A stretch of DNA of 64,000 nt from positions 544,001-608,000 of the forward strand of contig CBDCNQ010000002.1 in assembly GCA_965219445.1 (NCBI GenBank), in the 5' to 3' direction. Under the pieces are notes generated by a model. It ran no database searches and was not told the DNA's origin. It was given only the letters and a program-made list of their open reading frames with translations. Shown piece by piece: positions 37,845 through 61,448 of the stretch. Origin of the DNA: Longimicrobiales bacterium (GTDB lineage: Bacteria > Gemmatimonadota > Gemmatimonadetes > Longimicrobiales > Gaopeijiaceae). The first letter of the stretch is position 1. Every line of letters starts with the position of its first letter. Both the position numbers and the translations under genes were made by a program.

Positions 37845-38204
37845 AGGGGGTTCCCGGAACCGCGTACGACTCCCGTACGCGGCCTCCGACGGCCTCATTC
37901 GGATGGGCAAAGCGGGGGGTCCCATCCTTGGACGTTCGATGAGGCCGTTGAGCGCCTGGCTCCTCAGGTTGAGCAGGTAGAGCGCGAGGTTGAAGCCCTC
38001 CCTAGCCAACTCAGAGGCGCCAGAGTTGTCATCGAGGCAACCCTCCTCCCGAACTATCTCGCCGCCACATATTTCCCGACCCCCCTTCTCGAAGCCACTG
38101 GGTTTCAGTCGGTGGGCAGTCGCTCGACGACTGGAACTTACCGCACTCAAACGATGGAGCAGGAGAGGCCGACGAAGGTGCTGTTGTTGTCTGGAACTGG
38201 GGAG
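37845..38204 (+). pseudogene. N-terminal remnant of a probable S8 peptidase of the AAA-ATPase-associated (IetS-like) type, cut by IS256
   Basis: Start-less open frame reading HPWTFDEAVERLAPQ...TLLPNYLAATYFPTPLLEATGFQSVGSR up to the IS256 end; family assignment from memory of the motif. Confidence 0.45.
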
Positions 38205-38233
38205 GAGGTTGGGTCAATAGGTGTGTAAATGTT

Positions 38234-39478
38234 TCAGGCGGCGTTTTTCCGCTGTTGGGTTGAGACGGGCTTTCCGTCTTCGAACTTTCTTCCTTCAAAT
38301 ACGTCCTTGAGGAGGTGAGGAGCGTCGAGCCTTCTGAAGCGCTTCTCCGCCACCAAGAGCAGCTTCCAGATCAGCGCCGTAGCGCTCTCGACCCGCTTGA
38401 AGCGCTTCGCCGCCGTTGTCCTGAGCCGTACTGCGGCAAAGGGGCTCTCGACCACGTTCGTCGTGCGTAGATGCTTCCAGTGGTCCTCGGGGAAGTCGTA
38501 GAACGCCACCATCCGCTCCCAGTCGTCCTCGAGTACATCCACCGCCTTCGGATACCACGGTCTGTAGCGCCTGGCGAACGCCTCACGGGCCTTCAGCGCC
38601 TCGGACCGCCTCGGTGCGTAGACCACGGTCCTGAGAAGGTCCTTCGCCTCGCTCTGCTCCCGCTGAGGCAGCCGGTCCAGCACGTTCCTCATCTTGTGGT
38701 TCCAGCACCGTTGCTCGCCCGCCTCAGGCCATACCTGCCGTACTGCGCCCCAGATCGCCGCGTTGCCGTCCGCCATCAAAAGCCGGGGCGCCTCGATGCC
38801 GCGTGCCTTCAGATCCCGCAACACCTCGGACCAGGACTCGACCGACTCTCGGTAGCCCGATCTCAGGGCCAACACCTCCTTCGTACCATCTCGCATCGCA
38901 CCGAGAACCACCAGCAGCGCTGCCTTGTCCCGCTCGAGCCCCGCCTTCACGTAGATCCCGTCCGCCCAGACGTAGACGACCTCACGGTCGGCCAGCGAGC
39001 GCTTCGACCATTCCTCGAATTTCCTTGTCCATCCCGCCCGCAGCCGCCAAATCGAAGACTTCGACAACGGGGCCCCCTCGCCCAGCAGGCCCCGCATCGC
39101 CAGCTCGAAGTCTCCCTCCGCCAGCCCGTGCAGATACAGCTCCGGAAGCAGAGCACCCACCTCCTTCGTCCGTCGTGCGAACAACGGCAACACCCGACTC
39201 TCGAACCGCTCCTCAATGCCTCGAACCCGGGGCCGTCGGAGCATGATCGTGCCCGAGCTCATCGCCAGCCGCCGAGCCTTGCCGTAGCCGTTGCGGTAGC
39301 CTGGCGCCGGGTCTACGACCGTCTTCCGCTCCGACTTCTCCCGGCCGAGCAACTCCGTCACTTCCTCCTCCAGAATCCGCTGGACCATCTCCTGGGCCTT
39401 CTCACGAACCAGCGCTTCCAAGCACTCCCACGTCGGCGTGCTGGACTCACTCTCGGGTCCCACCATATTCTTCCTCAC
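38234..39478 (-). CDS. IS256-family (Mutator) DDE transposase, intact
   Basis: YRNGY, VWADGIY, MADG, QRCWNHK, RTTNVVES. Confidence 0.95.
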   Translation of the reverse strand: MRKNMVGPESESSTPTWECLEALVREKAQEMVQRILEEEVTELLGREKSERKTVVDPAPGYRNGYGKARRLAMSSGTIMLRRPRVRGIEERFESRVLPLFARRTKEVGALLPELYLHGLAEGDFELAMRGLLGEGAPLSKSSIWRLRAGWTRKFEEWSKRSLADREVVYVWADGIYVKAGLERDKAALLVVLGAMRDGTKEVLALRSGYRESVESWSEVLRDLKARGIEAPRLLMADGNAAIWGAVRQVWPEAGEQRCWNHKMRNVLDRLPQREQSEAKDLLRTVVYAPRRSEALKAREAFARRYRPWYPKAVDVLEDDWERMVAFYDFPEDHWKHLRTTNVVESPFAAVRLRTTAAKRFKRVESATALIWKLLLVAEKRFRRLDAPHLLKDVFEGRKFEDGKPVSTQQRKNAA

Positions 39479-39754
39479 GAGGCATCGTTCCTTTCCCCCG
39501 GGCGCTCACCCGGGATTCGCTGGTTAACTTCTTACTACCTAGCGGAAAGGTACGTCGCCTCTTTTTTTACACACCCTTCTATGGGGCTGGCGGTCAAGAC
39601 GCACCTTCCCCACGCGCCGTCGGCTCATTTTTTGACCGTCGGCGTCCGCATGGTTTGGATTGCCCGGTCGACGACTCAGGGTGGGGAGGGGTGCGCTCGC
39701 AGGGTCCGCATCGCAGTCCGGAAGACGTTCACAGCCGTCGCGTTCTCCGCTCTG

Positions 39755-39895
39755 GAGCGGGAACCATCCTTCTATCTGGGACTCTGTGGCCCATCGCTTC
39801 GTTCGGCTCTTCCAGGGGTGCATAGCCTTTGAGTGGGGGCTTGGGCTCTCTGCCCCGGCCCACGGTGTGTATGGATGCTGTCCCCTGTAACCGGT
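39755..39895 (-). ncRNA. Predicted bridge/seek RNA core (target- and donor-binding loops); limits approximate
   Basis: Guides UACACACC (39864-71), UCAAAGG (39826-32) and AUAGAAGG (39768-75) match the target and donor junctions and lie in stem-bounded internal loops. Confidence 0.72.
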
Positions 39896-39964
39896 TCGCT
39901 TCCGTTTCGTCGGACCCCATGTTGTGACCGCTTTCGACCCCACGCTCGCCGATCCCAGGCCGGT

Positions 39965-41020
39965 TTACTCCGTCGCTTCCAGTCTCTTGGGGTCGTACGC
40001 TTCGCCCGTGCGCCACACCGCTAGCACGATCGAGGCGAGCTGACGCGCGATCGTCAGCTTCGCCAGATTCGGCTTCGTGCCCCCCTCCAGGAGTCGCTCG
40101 TAGTGGCGGTACAAGGGTTCGTTTTCGGCCCGACCGATCACCGTCGTCGCCGCGCCCTTGAACACACGCTTCAGCGTGTGGTTGAAGTTCCGATTCAGCC
40201 CCCGCGTCTGCTGTACCGGTTCCCTTACCCACCGCCCACCCGGACCCCGCACCCAGTCCGACGAGCTCCGCATCACCACGCCCAGTCCGCAGTACGCCCA
40301 GAACCTGCTCCGGCTCTGGAACCGGTACGGCGTCACCACCACCGGCAGGAGCTCCGCCGTCCGGATCGGACCCAGACCCGGGCACGTCTTCAGCACATGC
40401 CACTCTCGATGCTTGCGTGCTTCCGCCAGCAACGCCTTCTCGGCCTTCGCCCTCAATGCCACGAGTGCGTCGTGCTCCTCGTACAGCAACCCGGCCGTCG
40501 TCCTGCTCGCTTCCGGCAGCTTGGCCAACCACTCCTCCCGGTCGCGCTTTAAGTAGACCGAGCGCCCCGCGCCGTAGGCCACTCCTCTCGAGCGCAGCAC
40601 GCTCTTGAGCCGGTTCTTCACCCGCACCGTGTCGCCGACCAGGAAGTCGTAGCTCTTCGCCCGTTCCCCCAGCCGCCTGAACTGGCCCCGGTTCTTGTAG
40701 ACCCTCGTCTCCAGTGATCCGATCCGCAGCTTCTCCGCCAGGGCAAACGCGTCCAGCTTGTCGGTCTTCGGGCCCCGGCTCTTGCCGACCCCCGCCACCG
40801 TCAGCTCCTCCACGTGCGGCTCCAGCACCTCGTACAGCCACCCCGACAGCGTCCCTTCTTCCAGGCATAAGTGCCGGTTCCTCGGAATCCCTCGCAGCAC
40901 CTCGATCAGCGCCCGCGCGTTCGTCTCCACCACCTGCGAGCCCAAGCGCTTGCCGCTGGGGCCTACAATCCCCAGCGTGCAGCTCGACGCGTGTGCGTCG
41001 AGTCCGATATATCTCTCCAT
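39965..41020 (-). CDS. IS110-family DEDD recombinase/transposase (351 aa)
   Basis: YIGLDAH, CLEEG, KTDKLDA (DEDD); CPGLG, YCGL, RSSS in the Tnp domain; RBS upstream of ATG 41020. Confidence 0.93.
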   Translation of the reverse strand: MERYIGLDAHASSCTLGIVGPSGKRLGSQVVETNARALIEVLRGIPRNRHLCLEEGTLSGWLYEVLEPHVEELTVAGVGKSRGPKTDKLDAFALAEKLRIGSLETRVYKNRGQFRRLGERAKSYDFLVGDTVRVKNRLKSVLRSRGVAYGAGRSVYLKRDREEWLAKLPEASRTTAGLLYEEHDALVALRAKAEKALLAEARKHREWHVLKTCPGLGPIRTAELLPVVVTPYRFQSRSRFWAYCGLGVVMRSSSDWVRGPGGRWVREPVQQTRGLNRNFNHTLKRVFKGAATTVIGRAENEPLYRHYERLLEGGTKPNLAKLTIARQLASIVLAVWRTGEAYDPKRLEATE

Positions 41021-41181
41021 CGGCGTTCTCCTCTTGGATAGGTGGGTTGCTTCCTTGCGCGAACAATGATGAACGCGCACCCGCTCCCGGAGGAGAACGC
41101 CTCTTCGTCTTCGGGCTGCTTCGCTGCTGATCGGTACCGGTAGCCGTCGCCATGCCCCTATGATGCCTTTGATCCTAGCTC

Positions 41182-41240
41182 CTGATGTACGCAGGACCAT
41201 CGAGAAGGACGTAGTGAGACAGCCATGCAGGTCTCCACAT
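41182..41240 (-). pseudogene. 5' stub of a gene coupled to the ATP-grasp gene, truncated by IS256
   Basis: TAATG overlap; MWRPAWLSHYVLLDGPAYI runs into the IS256 IR. Confidence 0.45.
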
Positions 41241-42229
41241 TAGGAACCCCTACGTCGTGCCGAGCGCGTCCGTCCGAGTAGCTCGGCCAGTTCGGCAGCG
41301 ATCGGAAACTGAACTTCCTCTTGGAGCCACGCCCACTCTCCCGTCGGGTTCACCTCCAGAAAAAAGAAGCGGTCGTCCGAGAGTGCGAGGTCTATTGCCG
41401 CGAAGCTCAGTCCAAGTCGGCGGGTCAACTCGATACAACGGGCTCCGACTGCCTGGGGAAGTGTGAACTCCGAGAAGACTACACTCGATTTCTTCAGCCG
41501 CCAGTCTCCGGCGATCCCGGATCCTCTTTCGGTTGCCGAAGCACACCACCAGCGATCCTCGACCACCGTCACCCGGAGATCCAGCTTGTCCGTCAAAGCT
41601 TGCTGGGCGACGAGCGGAGCTCCGCTCAGTTCTGCCTCTTCGAGTTCTTTTCGGAGCAGGAGATTCGTGTAACCGAAACTCTCGGTTGTCTCCGTCCTGA
41701 CCAAGACCGTGTCCAGCCCCTTGATCGCGACGACGGAACCGTTGACTCGGTCATCGAGAAAGTCGTCTGAGTTCAAGCAGTATGTCGCGGGGATGTCGAA
41801 GCCCACCTCAAATGCAGCCAGAAGCTGAATCATCTTATGTTCAGCTTCATAGGTCCGGGTCGGATGGTTGACCCATCGAGCCATGTCGAAGACCATCAGG
41901 TTGCGCAGGAACGCTGCCCACTGTGCCCGAGCGAATTGCTCCTCCGGTCGGCGTCCAGCTTGCGAAGCCTCCCGAAGAAAGGTTGGCCGTCGAAAGTACA
42001 CGCCTACGAGTCGGTCCGCCTCCACCTCGACGCGAACGTCTTCCGTGTGGCAGGACAACCGCCTCCGACACGGGTCGAGGCACAGCGTGTACGTGGGGAG
42101 GTCCTCGCTGTTAAGTCGGAAGTAGGGATGTCCGGACCTCCGCAGTGCCGATACGACGTAGTCGCACGACAGGTCATACCGGCTGGCGAGAACAAGCACC
42201 TTGGGACGAACCGTCGTGGTCGGAGGCAC
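41240..42229 (-). CDS. RiPP ATP-grasp ligase (graspetide synthetase, MvdC/D/RimK-like)
   Basis: WVNHP..AEHKMIQL, DLRVTVV, DWR, FAAIDL, FLEVNPTGEWAWL. Confidence 0.88.
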   Translation of the reverse strand: MPPTTTVRPKVLVLASRYDLSCDYVVSALRRSGHPYFRLNSEDLPTYTLCLDPCRRRLSCHTEDVRVEVEADRLVGVYFRRPTFLREASQAGRRPEEQFARAQWAAFLRNLMVFDMARWVNHPTRTYEAEHKMIQLLAAFEVGFDIPATYCLNSDDFLDDRVNGSVVAIKGLDTVLVRTETTESFGYTNLLLRKELEEAELSGAPLVAQQALTDKLDLRVTVVEDRWWCASATERGSGIAGDWRLKKSSVVFSEFTLPQAVGARCIELTRRLGLSFAAIDLALSDDRFFFLEVNPTGEWAWLQEEVQFPIAAELAELLGRTRSARRRGS

Positions 42230-54000: not shown

Positions 54001-55132
54001 GGCGCAGTTTGACCGCTGCATTGGGGGATTACTTAGATCCATCAGCGCCGACGATCGTCACGCGTTACTATTGGCAGCGGCCGATGATGCCAATGTAGAA
54101 CGCACCGCCCGATTGTTTCGGTGCGCTCCATTTGGACAGAAGATATGGCGTCTCATGGACCGATACGGAGAGAAAGTCAGAGCACGGTATTGGGATACAG
54201 TCTTCCCAGAAGTTGGTCGATACAGTGAGGCTGAATCGACTGAGTTGATCGATCGGCTTCTTGAAGCCAGGCGGCCTCGGGCTGTCTTCCATGCCGTGTG
54301 GTTTGACTGGTCGAGTATTGAAACATCCCGGCTTAAGCGTCTTCTGCTATCCCTAACGTCGGTGGGTGCTATCTCCGAGGAAGGTTATAGACTCGATCCC
54401 CATGATGTCTCCGAGGCCCTTGACTCACTGGACGGTCGACCGGGAGTCAGCCGAGACGACATGGCACAGCTTGAATTCCTGTTCATTACAGCACTTGGCT
54501 ACGCCAATCGTGGCATTCCCAACTTGGAGCGGAAGGTCGCAGAGTCCCCTGCCGAGTTTTTTCGAGCTCTAGCTTTTGCGTGCGACCGCCGGCACCGTGG
54601 AGAAGATCCTCGGGAATTACGAATCGACAACCCTGAGCAGCGAGAAGCGATGGCTCTATCCTGCCTAGATCTCCTTGATCGAGTCAGCATAATCCCGGGT
54701 ACGTCACAGGACGGCGGAATCGATGTCGAGGTGTTATCTACTTGGGTGATGGAAGTCCGTCGCCTCTGTGCAGAACACGACCGCACGGAACTCGGTGACC
54801 AGTATATCGGACAGCTCTTGTCCAAAGCTCCTCCAGATGACGACGGAATGTGGCCATGCCGCGCAATTTGCGAAGTCATGGAGGCAGTTGCATCTGAGCA
54901 TATCGGCAAAGGATTCTGGATGGGAGTCTACAATTCTCGCGGTGTATATTGGGGCAGGCGGGAGGCAGAACAGGAACGGGTGTCCGCTCAGAGGTATCGG
55001 GACTTGGCCGAACAACGTAACGCAGACTATCCTTACGTTTCCAGCGTCCTAAATAGCATCGGTGACACCTACGACCGGGAGGCGAAACAGCTGCAGATAG
55101 AAGCAGAAATCGAGAAACGGCGGAGTGTCTGA
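51054..55132 (+). pseudogene. HigA-like HTH fused to a large putative nuclease/NTPase-like helical protein, frameshifted by a 14-bp duplication (ORFs 51054-51362 and 51359-55132)
   Basis: IHPG..EAAKRLGVGRPALSKLLN HTH; removing one gtctatgtcccgcc copy joins both ORFs in frame (VYVPPFLTIKADQI; 1354 aa). Confidence 0.75.
51327..51354 (+). repeat. Perfect 14-bp tandem duplication
   Basis: gtctatgtcccgcc x2. Confidence 0.95.
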
Positions 55133-55133
55133 G

Positions 55134-55641
55134 GAGGTTGGGTCAATAGGTGTGTAAACGTATCAGGCGGCGTTTTTCCGCTGTTGGGTTGAGACGGGCT
55201 TTCCGTCTTCGAACTTCCTTCCTTCAAACACGTCCTTGAGGAGGTGAGGAGCGTCGAGCCTTCGGAACCGCTTCTCGGCCACCAAGAGCAACTTCCAGAT
55301 CAGCGCCGTAGCGCTCTCGACCCGCTTGAATCGCTTCGCCGCCGTCGTCCTGAGCCGTAGCGCAGCGAACGGGCTCTCGACCACGTTCGTCGTGCGTAGA
55401 TGCTTCCAGTGATCCTCGGGGAAGTCGTAGAACGCCACCATCCGCTCCCAGTCGTCCTCGAGTACGTCCACCGCCTTCGGATACCACGGCCTGTAGCGCC
55501 TGGCGAACACTTCGCGGGCCTTCACAGCCTCGGCCCGGCTCGGTGCGTAGACCACGGCCCTTGAGAAGATCCTTCGCCTCGCTCTGCTCCCGCTGCGGCA
55601 GCCGGTCCAGCACGTTCCTCATCTTGTGGTTCCAGCACCGT
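55134..55641 (-). mobile_element. IS256 3' fragment (copy B, very close to copy A), frameshifted
   Basis: Same IR and C-terminal transposase sequence; similarity stops at about 55641. Confidence 0.9.
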
Positions 55642-55990
55642 CGCTGCGTCGCGGAGGCTGATCAGCACCTTGAAGGCGCTTCCCAACCGGCGCATCAACG
55701 AGGTAGAAGGTCTTCCATTCTTTCCTCTACATACTCGTGCGACTGTCCACTTGGCGGTTGGAGTCGCCGCGGAGTATTTCAATTGCTGAATTTCAACGTG
55801 TTCTGCGTCAACCAAGTTATCGGCGCCAAAGAGTAGGGTGCAGTCCACACCATCCCAGTAGCTTCCATCACCGTTCGTGGCGGTCACCGCCACCTTCTTT
55901 GGCTGGCTGGCGGTGCGGGTATGTGCCGAGGGGTCCGATAGGGTGCGCGCCCATGTGTCGAGATAAATGGCCGTCTTGTTCGACGCTCTC
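55642..55990 (-). pseudogene. Remnant of a PD-(D/E)xK-like nuclease N-terminal domain
   Basis: WDGVDCTLLFG...VEIQQLKYS..WT, cut by the IS256 fragment. Confidence 0.45.
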
Positions 55991-56488: not shown

Positions 56489-56571
56489 TGTTCCTCCTTG
56501 CTAGGAAACGGCAGTGCGGATACATGAAACTGTCCCGGGTTTGAGGTCGGGTCAATAGGTGTGTAAACGTT

Positions 56572-57816
56572 TCAGGCGGCTGCTTTGCGCTGATGAGCTG
56601 AGACGGGCTTACCGTCCCTGAACTTCCTTTCTTCAAACACGTCCTTGAGCAGGTTTGGAGCGTCAAGCCTTCTGAAGCGTTTCTCCGCCACCGTCAGGAG
56701 CTTCCAGATGAGGGCGGTAGCACCTGTCGACGCGCTTAAATCGTTTTGCTGCCGACGTGCGGAGCCGTACCGAAGCGAACGGGCTTTCCACCACATTCGT
56801 CGTCCGTAGATGCTTCCAGTGGGCTTCGGGGAAGTCGTAGAACGTGACCATGCGGTCCCAGTCATCCTCGAGCACCGTCACAGCTTTCGGGTACCACGGC
56901 CCATAACGCTTGCCGAACGCCTGACGAGCTTTGAGCGCCGCGGCCCGTGTCGAGGCGTAGACGACTGTGCGCAGCAGTTCCTTGGCCTCTGACTGCCCGC
57001 GCTGCGGCAGCCGATCCAGGATGTTCCTCATCTTGTGATTCCAGCACCGCTGCTCGCCGGCCTCAGGCCACACCGTCCTCGCCGCGCCCCAGATCGCCGC
57101 GTTACCGTCGGCCATCAGTAGCTTCGGCGCTGCGAGGCCTCGAGCCTTGAGACCCCGAAAGACCTCCGCCCACGAGTCCGTTGACTCCCGGTAGCCTGAT
57201 GTGACGGCCAGAACCTCTTTCGTCCCGTCGCGCATGGCTCCCATCACCACCAGCAGCGCCGCTTTGTCTCGCTCCAGGCCCGCCTTCACGTAGATCCCGT
57301 CCGCCCATACGTAGACGACCTCACGGTCCGCCAAGGACCGCTTCGCCCACATCTCGAACTCACTCGACCACACGGCCCTGAGCCTGCGGATCGAAGCCTT
57401 CGACAGCGGCGCCCCCTCACCGAGTGGGCCCCTGAGCGCCAGCTCGAAATCCCCCGCGGCCAACCCGTGTAGGTACAGCTCCGGTATCAACTCCCCTACC
57501 TCCTTCGTCCGTCTCGCAAACAGCGGCAACACCGACTCTCGAAGCGTTCCTCCAGACCCCGTACCCGGGGGCGTCGCACCGTGATCGTGCCCGAACTCAT
57601 CGACAGCCGCCGCGCCTTGCCGTACCCGTTGCGGTAGCCAGGCGCCGCATCCACGGCTGCCTTCCGCTCTGACTTCTCACGGCCGAGGAGCTCGGTGACT
57701 TCCTCCTCCAAGATCTGTTGGATGAACTCCCGGGCCTTTTCACGGACCACTCCCTCCAGGCCCTCCCACAGCGGCATGGTGGACTCGGTCTCGGGTCCCG
57801 CGATATCCTTCCTCAT
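56572..57816 (-). pseudogene. IS256 transposase, two frameshifts
   Basis: Split over ORFs 57496-57846, 56663-57532 and 56572-56865. Confidence 0.9.
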
Positions 57817-58084
57817 GAGGCGACGTTCCTTTCCCCCGGGTGGCAACCCGGGACTCGCTGCTTAATGGTCAGCGGAAAGGTACGTCGCCTCTCTTTTTAC
57901 ACACCCTTCTATGGGGCTGGCGGTCAAGACGCACCTTCCCCACGCGCCGTCGGCTCATTTTTTTGACCGTCGGCGTCCGCATGGTTTGGATTGCCCGGTC
58001 GACGACTCAGGGTGGGGAGGGGTGCGCTCGCAGGGTCCGCATCGCAGTCCGGAAGACGTTCACAGCCGTCGCGTTCTCCGCTCT

Positions 58085-58220
58085 GGAGCGGGAACCATCC
58101 TTCTATCTGGGACTCTGTGGCCCATCGCTTCGTTCGGCTCTCCAGGGGTGCATAGCCTTTGAGTGGGGGCTTGGGCTCTCTGCCCCACGGTGTGTATGGA
58201 TGCTGTCCCCTGTAACCGGT
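58085..58220 (-). ncRNA. Predicted bridge RNA core, copy 2
   Basis: Same guides at 58189-96, 58156-62 and 58099-106; 5-nt deletion in the inner stem. Confidence 0.65.
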
Positions 58221-58289
58221 TCGCTTCCGTTTCGTCGGACCCCATGTTGTGACCGCTTTCGACCCCACGCTCGCCGATCCCGGCCCGGT

Positions 58290-59042
58290 TTACTCCGTCG
58301 CTTCCAGTCTCTTGGGGTCGTACGCTTCGCCCGTGCGCCACACCGCTAGCACGATCGAGGCGAGCTGACGCGCGATCGTCAGCTTCGCCAGATTCGGCTT
58401 CGTGCCCCCCTCTAGGAGTCGCTCGTAGTGGCGGTACAAGGGTTCGTTTTCGGCCCGACCGATCACCGTCGTCGCCGCGCCCTTGAACACACGCTTCAGC
58501 GTGTGGTTGAAGTTCCGATTCAGCCCCCGCGTCTCCGGCAGCTTGGCCAACCACTCCTCCCGGTCGCGCTTCAAGTAGACCGAGCGCCCCGCGCCGTAGG
58601 CCACTCCTCTCGAGCGCAGCACGCTCTTGAGCCGGTTCTTCACCCGCACCGTGTCGCCGACCAAGAAGTCGTAGCTCTTCGCCCGTTCCCCCAGCCGCCT
58701 GAACTGGCCCCGGTTCTTGTAGACCGTCGTCTCCAGTGATCCGATCCGCAGCTTCTCCGCCAGGGCAAACGCGTCCAGCTTGTCGGTCTTCGGGCCCCGG
58801 CTCTTGCCGACCCCCGCCACCGTCAGCTCCTCCACGTGCGGCTTCAGCACCTCGTACAGCCACCCCGACAGCGTCCCTTCTTCCAGGCATAAGTGCCGGT
58901 TCCTCGGAATCCCTCGCAGCACCTCGATCAGCGCCCGCGCGTTCGTCTCCACCACCTGCGAGCCCAAGCGCTTGCCGCTGGGGCCTACAATCCCCAGCGT
59001 GCAGCTCGACGCGTGTGCGTCGAGTCCGATATATCTCTCCAT
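58290..59042 (-). pseudogene. IS110 recombinase with a 303-bp in-frame deletion
   Basis: ...AKLPE|TRGLN...; lacks the equivalent of 40210-40512, including YCGL and RSSS. Confidence 0.9.
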
Positions 59043-59203
59043 CGGCGTTCTCCTCTTGGATAGGTGGGTTGCTTCCTTGCGCGAACAATGATGAACGCGC
59101 ACCCGTTCCCGGAGGAGAACGCCTCTTCGTCTTCGGGCTGCTTCGCTGCTGATCGGTACCGGTAGCGGTCGCCATGCCCCTATGATGCCTTTGATCCTAA
59201 CTC

Positions 59204-59878: not shown

Positions 59879-61448
59879 CTACCGCCTGCCCCGCTCACGC
59901 AAGATCCGAATGGCGGCGCCGAGGTTGTTCTGCGTCATAGCCCAGTCGAGGGGTACTCGATCGCGCGTCCGCTCCTTGAGCGCCTCGGTGAAGGCATCCA
60001 CAGCCTGCTCAAGGCGCTCTGTCCCGCTCTCTCGCTCGCCCAAGGCCGTAAGGGCGACGCCGAGGTTGTTCTGCGTCATAGCCCAGTTGAGGGGCACTCG
60101 ATCGCGCGTCCATTCCTTGAGCGCCTCAGCATAGGCATCCACGGCCTGCTCAAGGCGCTCTGTCCCGCTTTCCCGCTCGCCCAGGGCCGTAAGGGCGCCG
60201 CCGAGGTTGTTTTGCGTCGCGGCCCAGTTGAGAGGCACTCGATCGCGCGTCTGCTCCTTGAGCGCCTCAGCATAGGCATCCACGGCCTGCTCAAGGCGCT
60301 CTGTCCCGCTTTCCCGCTCGCCCATGGCCGAAAGGGCGACGCCGAGGTTGTTTTGCGTCATAGCCCAGTTGAGGGGCACTCGATCGCGCGTCCATTCCTC
60401 GAGCGCCTCGGTGTGGGCATCCACGGCCTGCTCAAGGCGCTCTGTCCCGCTTTCTCGCTCGCCCAAGGCCGTAAGGGCGGCGCCGAGGTTGTTCTGCGTC
60501 ATAGCCCAGTCGAGGGGTACTCGATCGCGCGTCCGCTCGTTGAGCGCCTCAGCATAGGCATCCACGGCCTGCTTCAAGGCGCTCTGTCCCGCTTTCCCGC
60601 TCGCCTAGGGTCTCAAGGGCGACGCCGAGGTTGTTTTGCGTCGTAGCCCAGTCGAGGGGCACCCGATCGCGCGTCTGCTCCTTGAGCGCCTCGGTGAAGG
60701 CATCCACGGCCTGCTCAAGGCGCTCTGTCCCGGGCTCCCGCTCACCCAGGGTCGCCAGGGCGACGCCAAACGCCATATGCAGGGAGGCGCGACGCTCCGA
60801 TTCGACCGTACCGCCTTCGAGCAGGGCGGCGATCTTCTTGATGACGCCGTTCAGGCCCTTCTCCAGCACCCGGCCGCGTGCTTCCGTTCCCGTGATCGGC
60901 GCTGCAACTCTCAGCGCCTCGGCGGTGAGCTGAGCACGGAGATCCTCGTGGAAGTCATCCTGCAGCCTCACGTTAACCAACTCGTAAGGCAGGTCCGCTC
61001 GATGAAGTGTGCCGTCCCCCTCGCGCGGCACGAACCACAAATTTAGTGCTTTTCCGGGATCTTTGACCGAACCGACGACTGCCAAGTCGGCATTCCACGT
61101 TTTCAACACTGTGAGGGTGCCCTTCCGCATGGCTGGCCGCCAATCGTACGCAGCACCAAGTGCTGACACGACACGGGCAGAGCGGACCAATTCGATGCCC
61201 TCAACGCCAGTGAAGGCCTCTTCGACCGTGCTCGTGTCACGTCCGGCAGCATCGTGTTGCAACCAGCACAACACCAAGCGAAATCTCTGTTCAGGAAGCG
61301 GCGGTCTGCTCTTGAAAGCATTGGCGATGGCCAACTGCGTCCGTTGAGGCGACGGCAGGAATTGCGTAAAGAACCCCTTGAGCCAACCCCTTAACACTGC
61401 CAAGACGATGGCGACGATCCAGACGACCGGACTCGTTAACAACTCCAT
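59879..61448 (-). pseudogene. Membrane-anchored TPR-repeat protein, +1 frameshift near 60573
   Basis: ORFs 60549-61448 and 59879-60577 carry the same repeat; gcttcaagg versus consensus gctcaagg. Confidence 0.8.
59915..60765 (-). repeat. 141-bp (47-aa) intragenic tandem repeat, about 6 copies
   Basis: gaggttgtt at 59921, 60062, 60203, 60344, 60485 and 60627; unit RDRVPLDWAMTQNNLG..GERESGTERLEQAVDA..EAL. Confidence 0.92.

Follow-up and report, generated by a model that had tools for sequence, protein, structure and literature searches.

We have analysed a window of 64,000 nucleotides (C2:544001-608000) from a 4.56-Mb genome in five contigs with 63% G+C, whose nearest public relatives are metagenome-assembled genomes (MAGs) of Longimicrobiales (Gemmatimonadota), and have found an insertion sequence (IS) of the IS110 family inside the terminal inverted repeat of an IS256-family element. 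Very probably, this IS is an IS1111-group element that enters the transposase-proximal IS256 repeat at one fixed base and in one fixed orientation, most likely directed there by a guide RNA (bridge RNA or seekRNA) from its own 3' region. The first copy in the window (copy 1) and its host are composed as follows.

38205..38229: transposase-distal terminal inverted repeat of the IS256-family element, GAGGTTGGGTCAATAGGTGTGTAAA; 29 such ends occur genome-wide, none of them interrupted
38234..39478, minus strand: IS256-family transposase gene, 414 aa (Pfam Transposase_mut PF00872, E 8.1e-59, 199.8 bits)
39566..39578: inner part (13 bases) of the transposase-proximal IS256 inverted repeat, TTTACACACCCTT; the last four bases (39575-39578, CCTT) are the core shared with the inserted element
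39579..41169, minus strand: IS1111-group (IS110 family) insertion sequence, 1591 bp including one shared CCTT core copy (41166-41169)
39579-39582: 4-base right-end extension CTAT, preceding the right-end sub-terminal repeat
39583..39593: right-end sub-terminal inverted repeat GGGGCTGGCGG (plus-strand letters), pairing with 41148-41158 and conserved in relatives
39965..41020, minus strand: DEDD/serine recombinase (transposase) gene, 351 aa (P0001), recognised by its Pfam domains and conserved catalytic columns
41148..41165: left-end sub-terminal inverted repeat CGCCATGCCCC (41148-41158) with its 7-base extension TATGATG (41159-41165), as read from the sequence
41170..41181: outer portion (12 bases) of the split IS256 repeat, TGATCCTAGCTC, reaching the true IS256 end at 41181

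The bounds 39579-41169 have been set by the shared-core convention, and both junctions of copy 1 carry CCTT. The left junction reads ..TTTACACACCCTT/CTATGG at 39578/39579, and the right junction reads GATGCCTT/TGATCCTAGCTC at 41169/41170. When the element and one CCTT are taken out, the flanks join to TTTACACACCCTTTGATCCTAGCTC, which shows 20/25 ungapped identity to the reverse complement of 38205-38229. The original prediction, made from the letters of the window, had claimed that such a removal restores a repeat matching the other IS256 end, and this claim holds, the uninterrupted form being found in relatives and in public contigs as well. The insertion that it described is likewise confirmed, while its bounds of 39568..41181 have to be replaced by those given above.

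With the IS1111-type insert included, the host IS256-family element spans 38205-41181, and the insertion, which lies between the transposase gene and the tip, puts 1.6 kb between the inner 13 repeat bases and the tip. Members of the IS256 family carry a transposase of the Mutator-type DDE class, to which the host transposase belongs by its PF00872 match, and are ~1.3-1.5 kb long, with imperfect terminal inverted repeats and 8-9-bp target duplications. In this genome the uninterrupted copies measure 1367-1387 bp, and the IS256 of copy 1 belongs to a class of 16 genome-wide copies that are 100% identical. Target duplications of 8-9 bp have been observed around the whole composite, or around an empty IS256, at 10 loci. 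Since these duplications flank the composite, the split repeat is a real IS256 end, with the IS1111-type element lying inside it. The reverse order, in which an IS256 would have landed beside an IS110 element, was considered and can be rejected: both the IS256 tip and the target duplication are found on the far side of the IS110 element. As a side observation, the halves of the IS256 target duplications are swapped between the members of certain copy pairs (e.g., C2 419857/464839, C2 525537/618515, C3 149204/165138 and C4 200648/329775), which indicates chromosomal inversions by recombination between IS copies.

By its protein domains and its architecture, the element should be an IS110-family member of the IS1111 group. 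Its recombinase matches DEDD_Tnp_IS110 (PF01548, 38.7 bits, cut-off 29) and Transposase_20 (PF02371, 32 bits, cut-off 21.3), and the residues D8, E54/E55, D87, D90 and S253 are unchanged across 21 relatives. A phmmer search of the recombinase against PDB gave no match, and IS621 was reached by profile search only (8wt6, E 7e-5); there, the catalytic columns align with the IGIDT, CIEATG, KTDTVDA and SGSS stretches of IS621, which we take to be the carriers of its catalytic residues. The element has 387 nt of non-coding DNA 3' of the recombinase gene, as compared with 150 nt 5' of it, and its sub-terminal repeats read GGGGCATGGCG / GGGGCTGGCGG, with one 1-base indel between them. For the IS1111 family, PMC11187229 gives sub-terminal inverted repeats of ~11-13 bp with extensions of 7 bp on the left and 3 bp on the right; the left extension here has the stated 7 bp (CATCATA).

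Site specificity within the genome and among relatives

A BLAST search of the genome recovered 22 full copies of the element, which are 98.4-100% identical, and 3 partial ones. As many as 21/22 full copies lie at one base of the transposase-proximal IS256 repeat. The IS256 tip is found on the right side in the same number (21/22) and is exact in 20, and the intact inner repeat is found on the left side in 19/22. The orientation is identical in all copies, and the crossover lies 12 bases from the IS256 tip. Viewed from the host, 19/24 full IS256 copies carry the element, and the proximal repeat alone is used, with none of the 29 distal repeats occupied. Chance is excluded as the cause of this shared insertion site.

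The three exceptions on the left side are of different kinds. One copy lies at a look-alike site outside IS256, GTCACACCTT../..TGAGTC, and no empty version of this off-target site (C2 336721-338312) was found in 31 related genomes. At another, a group II intron-like element landed later, 6 bp from the IS110 junction. The remaining copy has a 509-base duplicate of the element's own right-end segment in front of it.

Two side observations belong to these exceptions. The group II intron-like element (C4:1169767-1171666) is 1.9 kb long and carries a reverse transcriptase with a YADD motif; it has 13 copies in the genome, 98.8-100% identical, most of them with a CAC(C) flank on one side, and one of them lies in the IS256 repeat. 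As to the duplicated segment, one extra ~509-base tandem copy of the 3' segment stands beside a full copy of the element (C5:1611137-1613242), and in another MAG (L005:3918-4835) we have observed two extra ~484-base tandem 3' segments, whose breakpoints differ from those of the former case. These extra segments comprise the end of the recombinase gene, the non-coding region and the right end, and they may be products of recombination between the right end and a half-matching site within that gene.

The same relation has been observed in other genomes. In 4 other Longimicrobiales assemblies, 10 loci show the element, 95-99% identical, between both IS256 flanks, and the IS256 transposases there are 82-87% identical to that of copy 1. 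The uninterrupted sequence TTTACACACCCTTTGATCCTA is present in two related genomes, twice in G006 and once in G007; the IS256 remnants that hold these sites are old and degraded and do not belong to the young 100% class, so they confirm the wild-type sequence but carry no information on scars. In addition, contigs that cross position 39578 from IS256 straight into TGATCCTAGCTC were found in 6/8 public runs, with 4-10 per run and varied flanks beyond. In seven DNA-type public runs, the summed contig depth of IS256 is ~5-40x that of the IS110 element (region 38000-41500). This suggests, contig depth being a poor measure, that the IS256-like copies of those communities are mostly unoccupied.

A predicted guide RNA in the 3' non-coding region

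We have predicted an RNA in the 3' non-coding region that could direct the element to this site. Its parts are as follows.

39813..39887, minus strand: predicted target-binding stem-loop of the bridge/seekRNA, indicated by target matches, fold and compensatory changes
39864-39872, minus strand: predicted 5' guide AUACACACC, matching one target strand
39826-39832, minus strand: predicted 3' guide UCAAAGG, matching the other target strand
39760..39808, minus strand: predicted donor-binding stem-loop, covarying with the right end
39768-39775, minus strand: predicted donor guide AUAGAAGG, equal to the element's right end together with the core

Between element and target, the longest exact matches are UACACACC (8 nt) and UCAAAGG (7 nt), both in the 3' non-coding region. 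The former equals the plus strand of the window just left of the crossover, and the latter equals the other strand, spanning the crossover. The two matches overlap in the target, and in the minimum-energy fold they face each other in one internal loop. When the sequence was shuffled as a control, equal match lengths and geometry were obtained in 57/50,000 cases. RNAalifold applied to 33 related sequences recovered both modules, with compensatory changes in 10/25 consensus pairs; in the outer stem, one pair is A-U in 16 of the sequences and G-C in 15 of them. The scaffold of the RNA is conserved to relatives with 52-60% protein identity, and the loop segments are variable.

At 20 loci whose guides are distinct, the guides have further been compared with their flanks. 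In 16/20, the 5' guide finds its best match directly after the right end, and in 16/20 the 3' guide finds its own directly before the left end; guide and flank are, for instance, UUGUUUUGC with GCAAAACAA (L013), and AAGGAUAGG with AAGGATAGG (L039). The donor loop tracks the right-end variants ATGGAAAG, ATGGAAGG, ACAGAAGG and ATAGGAGG, and it covaries with the right end at L019, L060, L065, L068, L071 and L074. The predicted circle junction, GATGCCTT/CTATGG, has its counterpart in the conserved donor loop. Among the 22 copies of the source genome, no variation of the guides that might follow the altered empty sites was found, the 387-nt non-coding region having 3 variable columns, all of them outside the guides.

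Among the relatives compared, guides that match IS256 are confined to the Longimicrobiales clade, so the IS256 specificity is a natural reprogramming. Most Gemmatimonadota relatives (L010, L014-L023, L034, L037, L039 and others) carry guides for another target, ..GGATAGG/AAATTCAA.. A 95%-identical copy in another Longimicrobiales genome (L009:2357-3942) has altered guides, UACGCACC and UCACUAGG, and is bordered by a distal-type IS256 repeat (GAGGTTGGGTCA/ATAGG) at one end and by unrelated DNA at the opposite end. Its genome holds 9 uninterrupted distal repeats, all reading GGGTCAATAGGTGTGTAAA, and none of these fits the altered guides.

Based on the above analyses, a course of events can be proposed. 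The guide RNA would be transcribed from the 3' non-coding region and bound by the recombinase. The element would leave, or be copied out, as a circle; by our reading of the sequence, joining the ends would place the TTGACC -35 box of the right end 17 bp from CATCAT of the left end, and this TTGACC-N17-CATCAT junction could serve as a promoter. Recombination would then take place inside the shared CCTT. IS256 ends would provide the element with a multi-copy, harmless landing site. With its repeat split, IS256 would likely be crippled in its transposition, and the element would be a parasite of a parasite. Loss of IS256 mobility after the insertion is likely.

Occupied and empty IS256 ends, and rival explanations

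The window holds a second composite, with further IS256 remains beside it.

56543..57908, minus strand: second, divergent IS256-family copy, 79.7% identical to copy 1, with a frameshifted transposase gene
57909..59191, minus strand: second IS1111-type copy in the same position and orientation, with a 302-bp internal deletion in its recombinase gene
59192..59203: outer part of the second IS256 split repeat, TGATCCTAACTC, read from the junction
55131..55645, minus strand: partial third IS256 copy (the first ~515 bases, 94% identical to copy 1), adjoining the second copy

The junctions of the second copy are 57908/57909 and 59191/59192, its deletion corresponds to query positions 633-934, and the frameshift divides the host transposase into open reading frames (ORFs) at 56663-57532 and 57496-57846. 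Over their aligned parts, the two IS110 copies of the window are 98.4-99.1% identical. The original prediction had recognised the same insertion in a divergent IS256 and had quoted the differing N-termini correctly; it placed the second copy rightly, and it missed both the deletion and the frameshift of the host. Directly downstream of the second composite, at 59890-60877, lie at least 5 direct repeats with a 141-base period, 86-89% identical except for one of 63%, which overlap ORFs on both strands.

From these two copies, two independent site-specific insertions had been proposed, and the genome-wide data agree with this view. The 22 copies represent 21 IS110 haplotypes with up to 29 differences. 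Six haplotypes occur in IS256 hosts of one identical haplotype, where C3_150577 and C3_163765 differ by 22. One IS110 haplotype (g0) is found both in a host of the 100% class and in a host of the 89% class, which are 11% apart. Overall, the occupied hosts fall into classes of 100, 97, 89 and 80% identity, and their IS110 copies are at least 98.4% alike. Given such discordance between host and guest, the insertions are independent events and not the product of one duplication or conversion. The prediction had named unrelated sites, or spread by a single event, as what would speak against it, and the genome-wide check found neither, with 21/22 copies in the repeat and 1/22 at a look-alike site.

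The empty sites are also informative. The uninterrupted 14-mer TACACACCCTTTGA has 0 copies in the genome, and all 5 uninterrupted IS256 copies carry at least one change within the guide-matched positions. In this genome the element fills every perfectly matching site. Two of the empty copies are older lineages, reading CCCTCTGA and ACTCACC with the core intact. The other three belong to the 16-copy class and are otherwise 100% identical over ~1373 bases; their sites read CCTT-GATCC, CCTTCGATCC and CCTTCTGATCC, as compared with the wild-type CCTTTGATCC, which means three changes at one spot, a different 1-base change in each copy next to the crossover. In recombinase orientation the site has the form GGATC-X-AAGG. 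The wild type has A at X, and the three variants have nothing, G or AG; the right end of the element closes with these same G and AG (..ATAG/AAGG).

Since ~22,000 aligned bases are otherwise identical, three changes at one spot cannot be ordinary mutation sorted by survivorship. We favour the reading that the altered empty sites are scars of imprecise loss of the element, which would no longer pair with the 3' guide and would be empty for this reason. Precise losses would be refilled, and imprecise losses would leave an IS256 end immune to re-invasion. Against the scar model, section 7 of PMC11187229 states that the rejoined target was not detected, and the abstract of a 2026 preprint (10.64898/2026.08.31.748434) describes a single-strand circle with the donor left intact; copying out without restoration of the site, to which this work on the family points, counts against imprecise loss as the source of the changes. 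It is possible, though doubtful, that the two are engaged in an arms race, in which the element saturates IS256 ends, effectively silences IS256 genome-wide, and itself creates resistant IS256 alleles through the scars of imprecise loss.

Several observations weigh against an RNA-guided IS1111-type element as we have described it. The insertion outside IS256 (C2 338312) fits the guides only with a one-base shift of the overlap, and a solo IS256-repeat-like sequence (C1:205738-205760, CACACCCTTTGATCCCAGCTC) matches 12/14 guide positions and is unoccupied. For the second donor guide, which is expected to match the left end, only a GAUG match was found, with no covariation. The right extension is ATAG(A), i.e., 4-5 bp depending on the placement of the core, versus the 3 bp stated for the family. 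An Rfam scan of 38000-41400 with E up to 1 gave no family. One RNA run (X20) gave a single 286-nt contig of depth 2.4 inside the recombinase gene and none on the non-coding region, which is evidence neither way. Moreover, most IS110 polymorphisms are shared and of intermediate frequency. The haplotypes have accordingly been reshuffled by recombination, and the number of haplotypes becomes a weaker measure of the number of events; the discordance between host and guest stands despite this reshuffling.

We have weighed two other accounts of the shared site, and we give each of them very little probability. After one original insertion, the IS256::IS110 composite might have spread by the IS256 transposase, by segmental duplication or by gene conversion. 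Although the target duplications around the whole composite are what composite transposition would give, and although some identical hosts hold IS110 copies differing at 1 site (e.g., C3_163765 and C5_1630658) among haplotypes that recombination has reshuffled, other copies in identical hosts differ at up to 22 sites, one haplotype occurs in hosts 11% apart, and hosts 20% apart hold copies at least 98.4% alike. Further, one copy lies at a look-alike outside IS256, other species with other IS256 variants show the same relation, and uninterrupted sites exist and the guide matches the site. Composite spread as the sole process is thus largely refuted. The recombinase protein alone, or the DNA structure of the repeat, might also choose the target, and the loop matches would then be incidental. 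This is hard to reconcile with guides and flanks that change together (best matches at the element ends in 16/20 for each guide), with the covariation of the donor loop with the right end and that of the stems, and with the RNA mechanism shown experimentally for four IS1111 members in PMC11187229, even though neither the Rfam scan nor the RNA run revealed an RNA of this element and some perfect or near-perfect matches are unoccupied in G007, a relative that carries the element.

As to the immobilisation of IS256, the main rival is that the occupied IS256 stays mobile as a 3-kb composite, in which case the repeat would be a vehicle and a safe harbour, and the insertion would not silence its host. 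We consider this unlikely, yet clearly less so than the two accounts above. The outer 12 repeat bases and the whole other end are intact, target duplications flank the composite, and occupied copies have intact and identical transposase genes; the element even reads towards the IS256 transposase gene, which read-through could drive. However, no unambiguous pair of identical composites was found at different loci, and the inner 13 repeat bases have been displaced 1.6 kb from the tip. In addition, only copies with altered sites are still empty, which suggests that the burst of 100%-identical copies preceded their occupation. Loss of mobility after insertion is the reading that we prefer for the host.

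Comparison with known systems

In our literature search, no paper was found on an IS110-family element that targets an IS256 repeat, ISfinder entries being outside this search. The novelty suggested by the original prediction is nevertheless weakened, since both RNA guidance and homing to the terminal repeats of other mobile elements were already known. The seekRNA/bridge RNA mechanism was described in 2024, and to our knowledge such elements are unstudied in Gemmatimonadota. The locus provides a decoded natural example of a bridge/seekRNA-guided recombinase programmed against the end of another transposon, with the RNA being predicted. It comes with natural replicates, i.e., 22 copies in four host-IS lineages and several species, and the relatives show the co-change of guide and target. 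The set may therefore serve to test rules of guide prediction for the IS1111 group, and it may supply new orthologues. Besides, the saturation of sites and the clustered changes make it testable whether a host IS is restrained in this way and whether resistant scars are left.

IS4321 and IS5075 are IS110-family elements that target the terminal repeats of the Tn21 family. They share with the present element the IS1111-type architecture (sub-terminal repeats and a long right-end non-coding region) as well as a fixed position and orientation in the terminal repeat of another mobile element, with many independent insertions. Compared by architecture and habit, they differ in their target, which is a Tn3-family transposon and not an IS256-family IS, and in their hosts, the host here being an uncultured member of Longimicrobiales (Gemmatimonadota). 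Reportedly, IS1383 specifically targets the inverted repeats of IS1384 in Pseudomonas putida H (Muller, Lauf & Herrmann 2001). It would likewise be an IS110-family element landing in the terminal repeats of another insertion sequence; its host IS is a different one, IS1384, and in the present case only one of the two IS256 repeats is used.

Four elements of the IS1111 family, ISEc11, ISKpn4, ISPst6 and ISPa11, are said to target REP sequences and attC sites. Their seekRNAs have been shown experimentally, according to PMC11187229, and section 9 of that source describes the match to the top strand as lying 5' of the match to the bottom strand, the two overlapping in the target. The present element resembles them in the short RNA predicted from its 3' non-coding region, in the same order and overlap of the matches, and in the changes of segments that switch the target between close relatives. 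It is unlike them in its target, and its RNA is a prediction.

Finally, the element can be compared with IS621 and its bridge RNA, as described in PMC11208160 and PMC11208158. The predicted RNA is at the right end here, unlike the left end in IS621, long sub-terminal repeats are present here, the core is CCTT versus CT, and the proteins are similar by profile only (E 7e-5). The two are alike in combining DEDD and serine recombinase parts (by the profile match to 8wt6), and in having a target loop and a donor loop, through which both strands would be paired around a short core.

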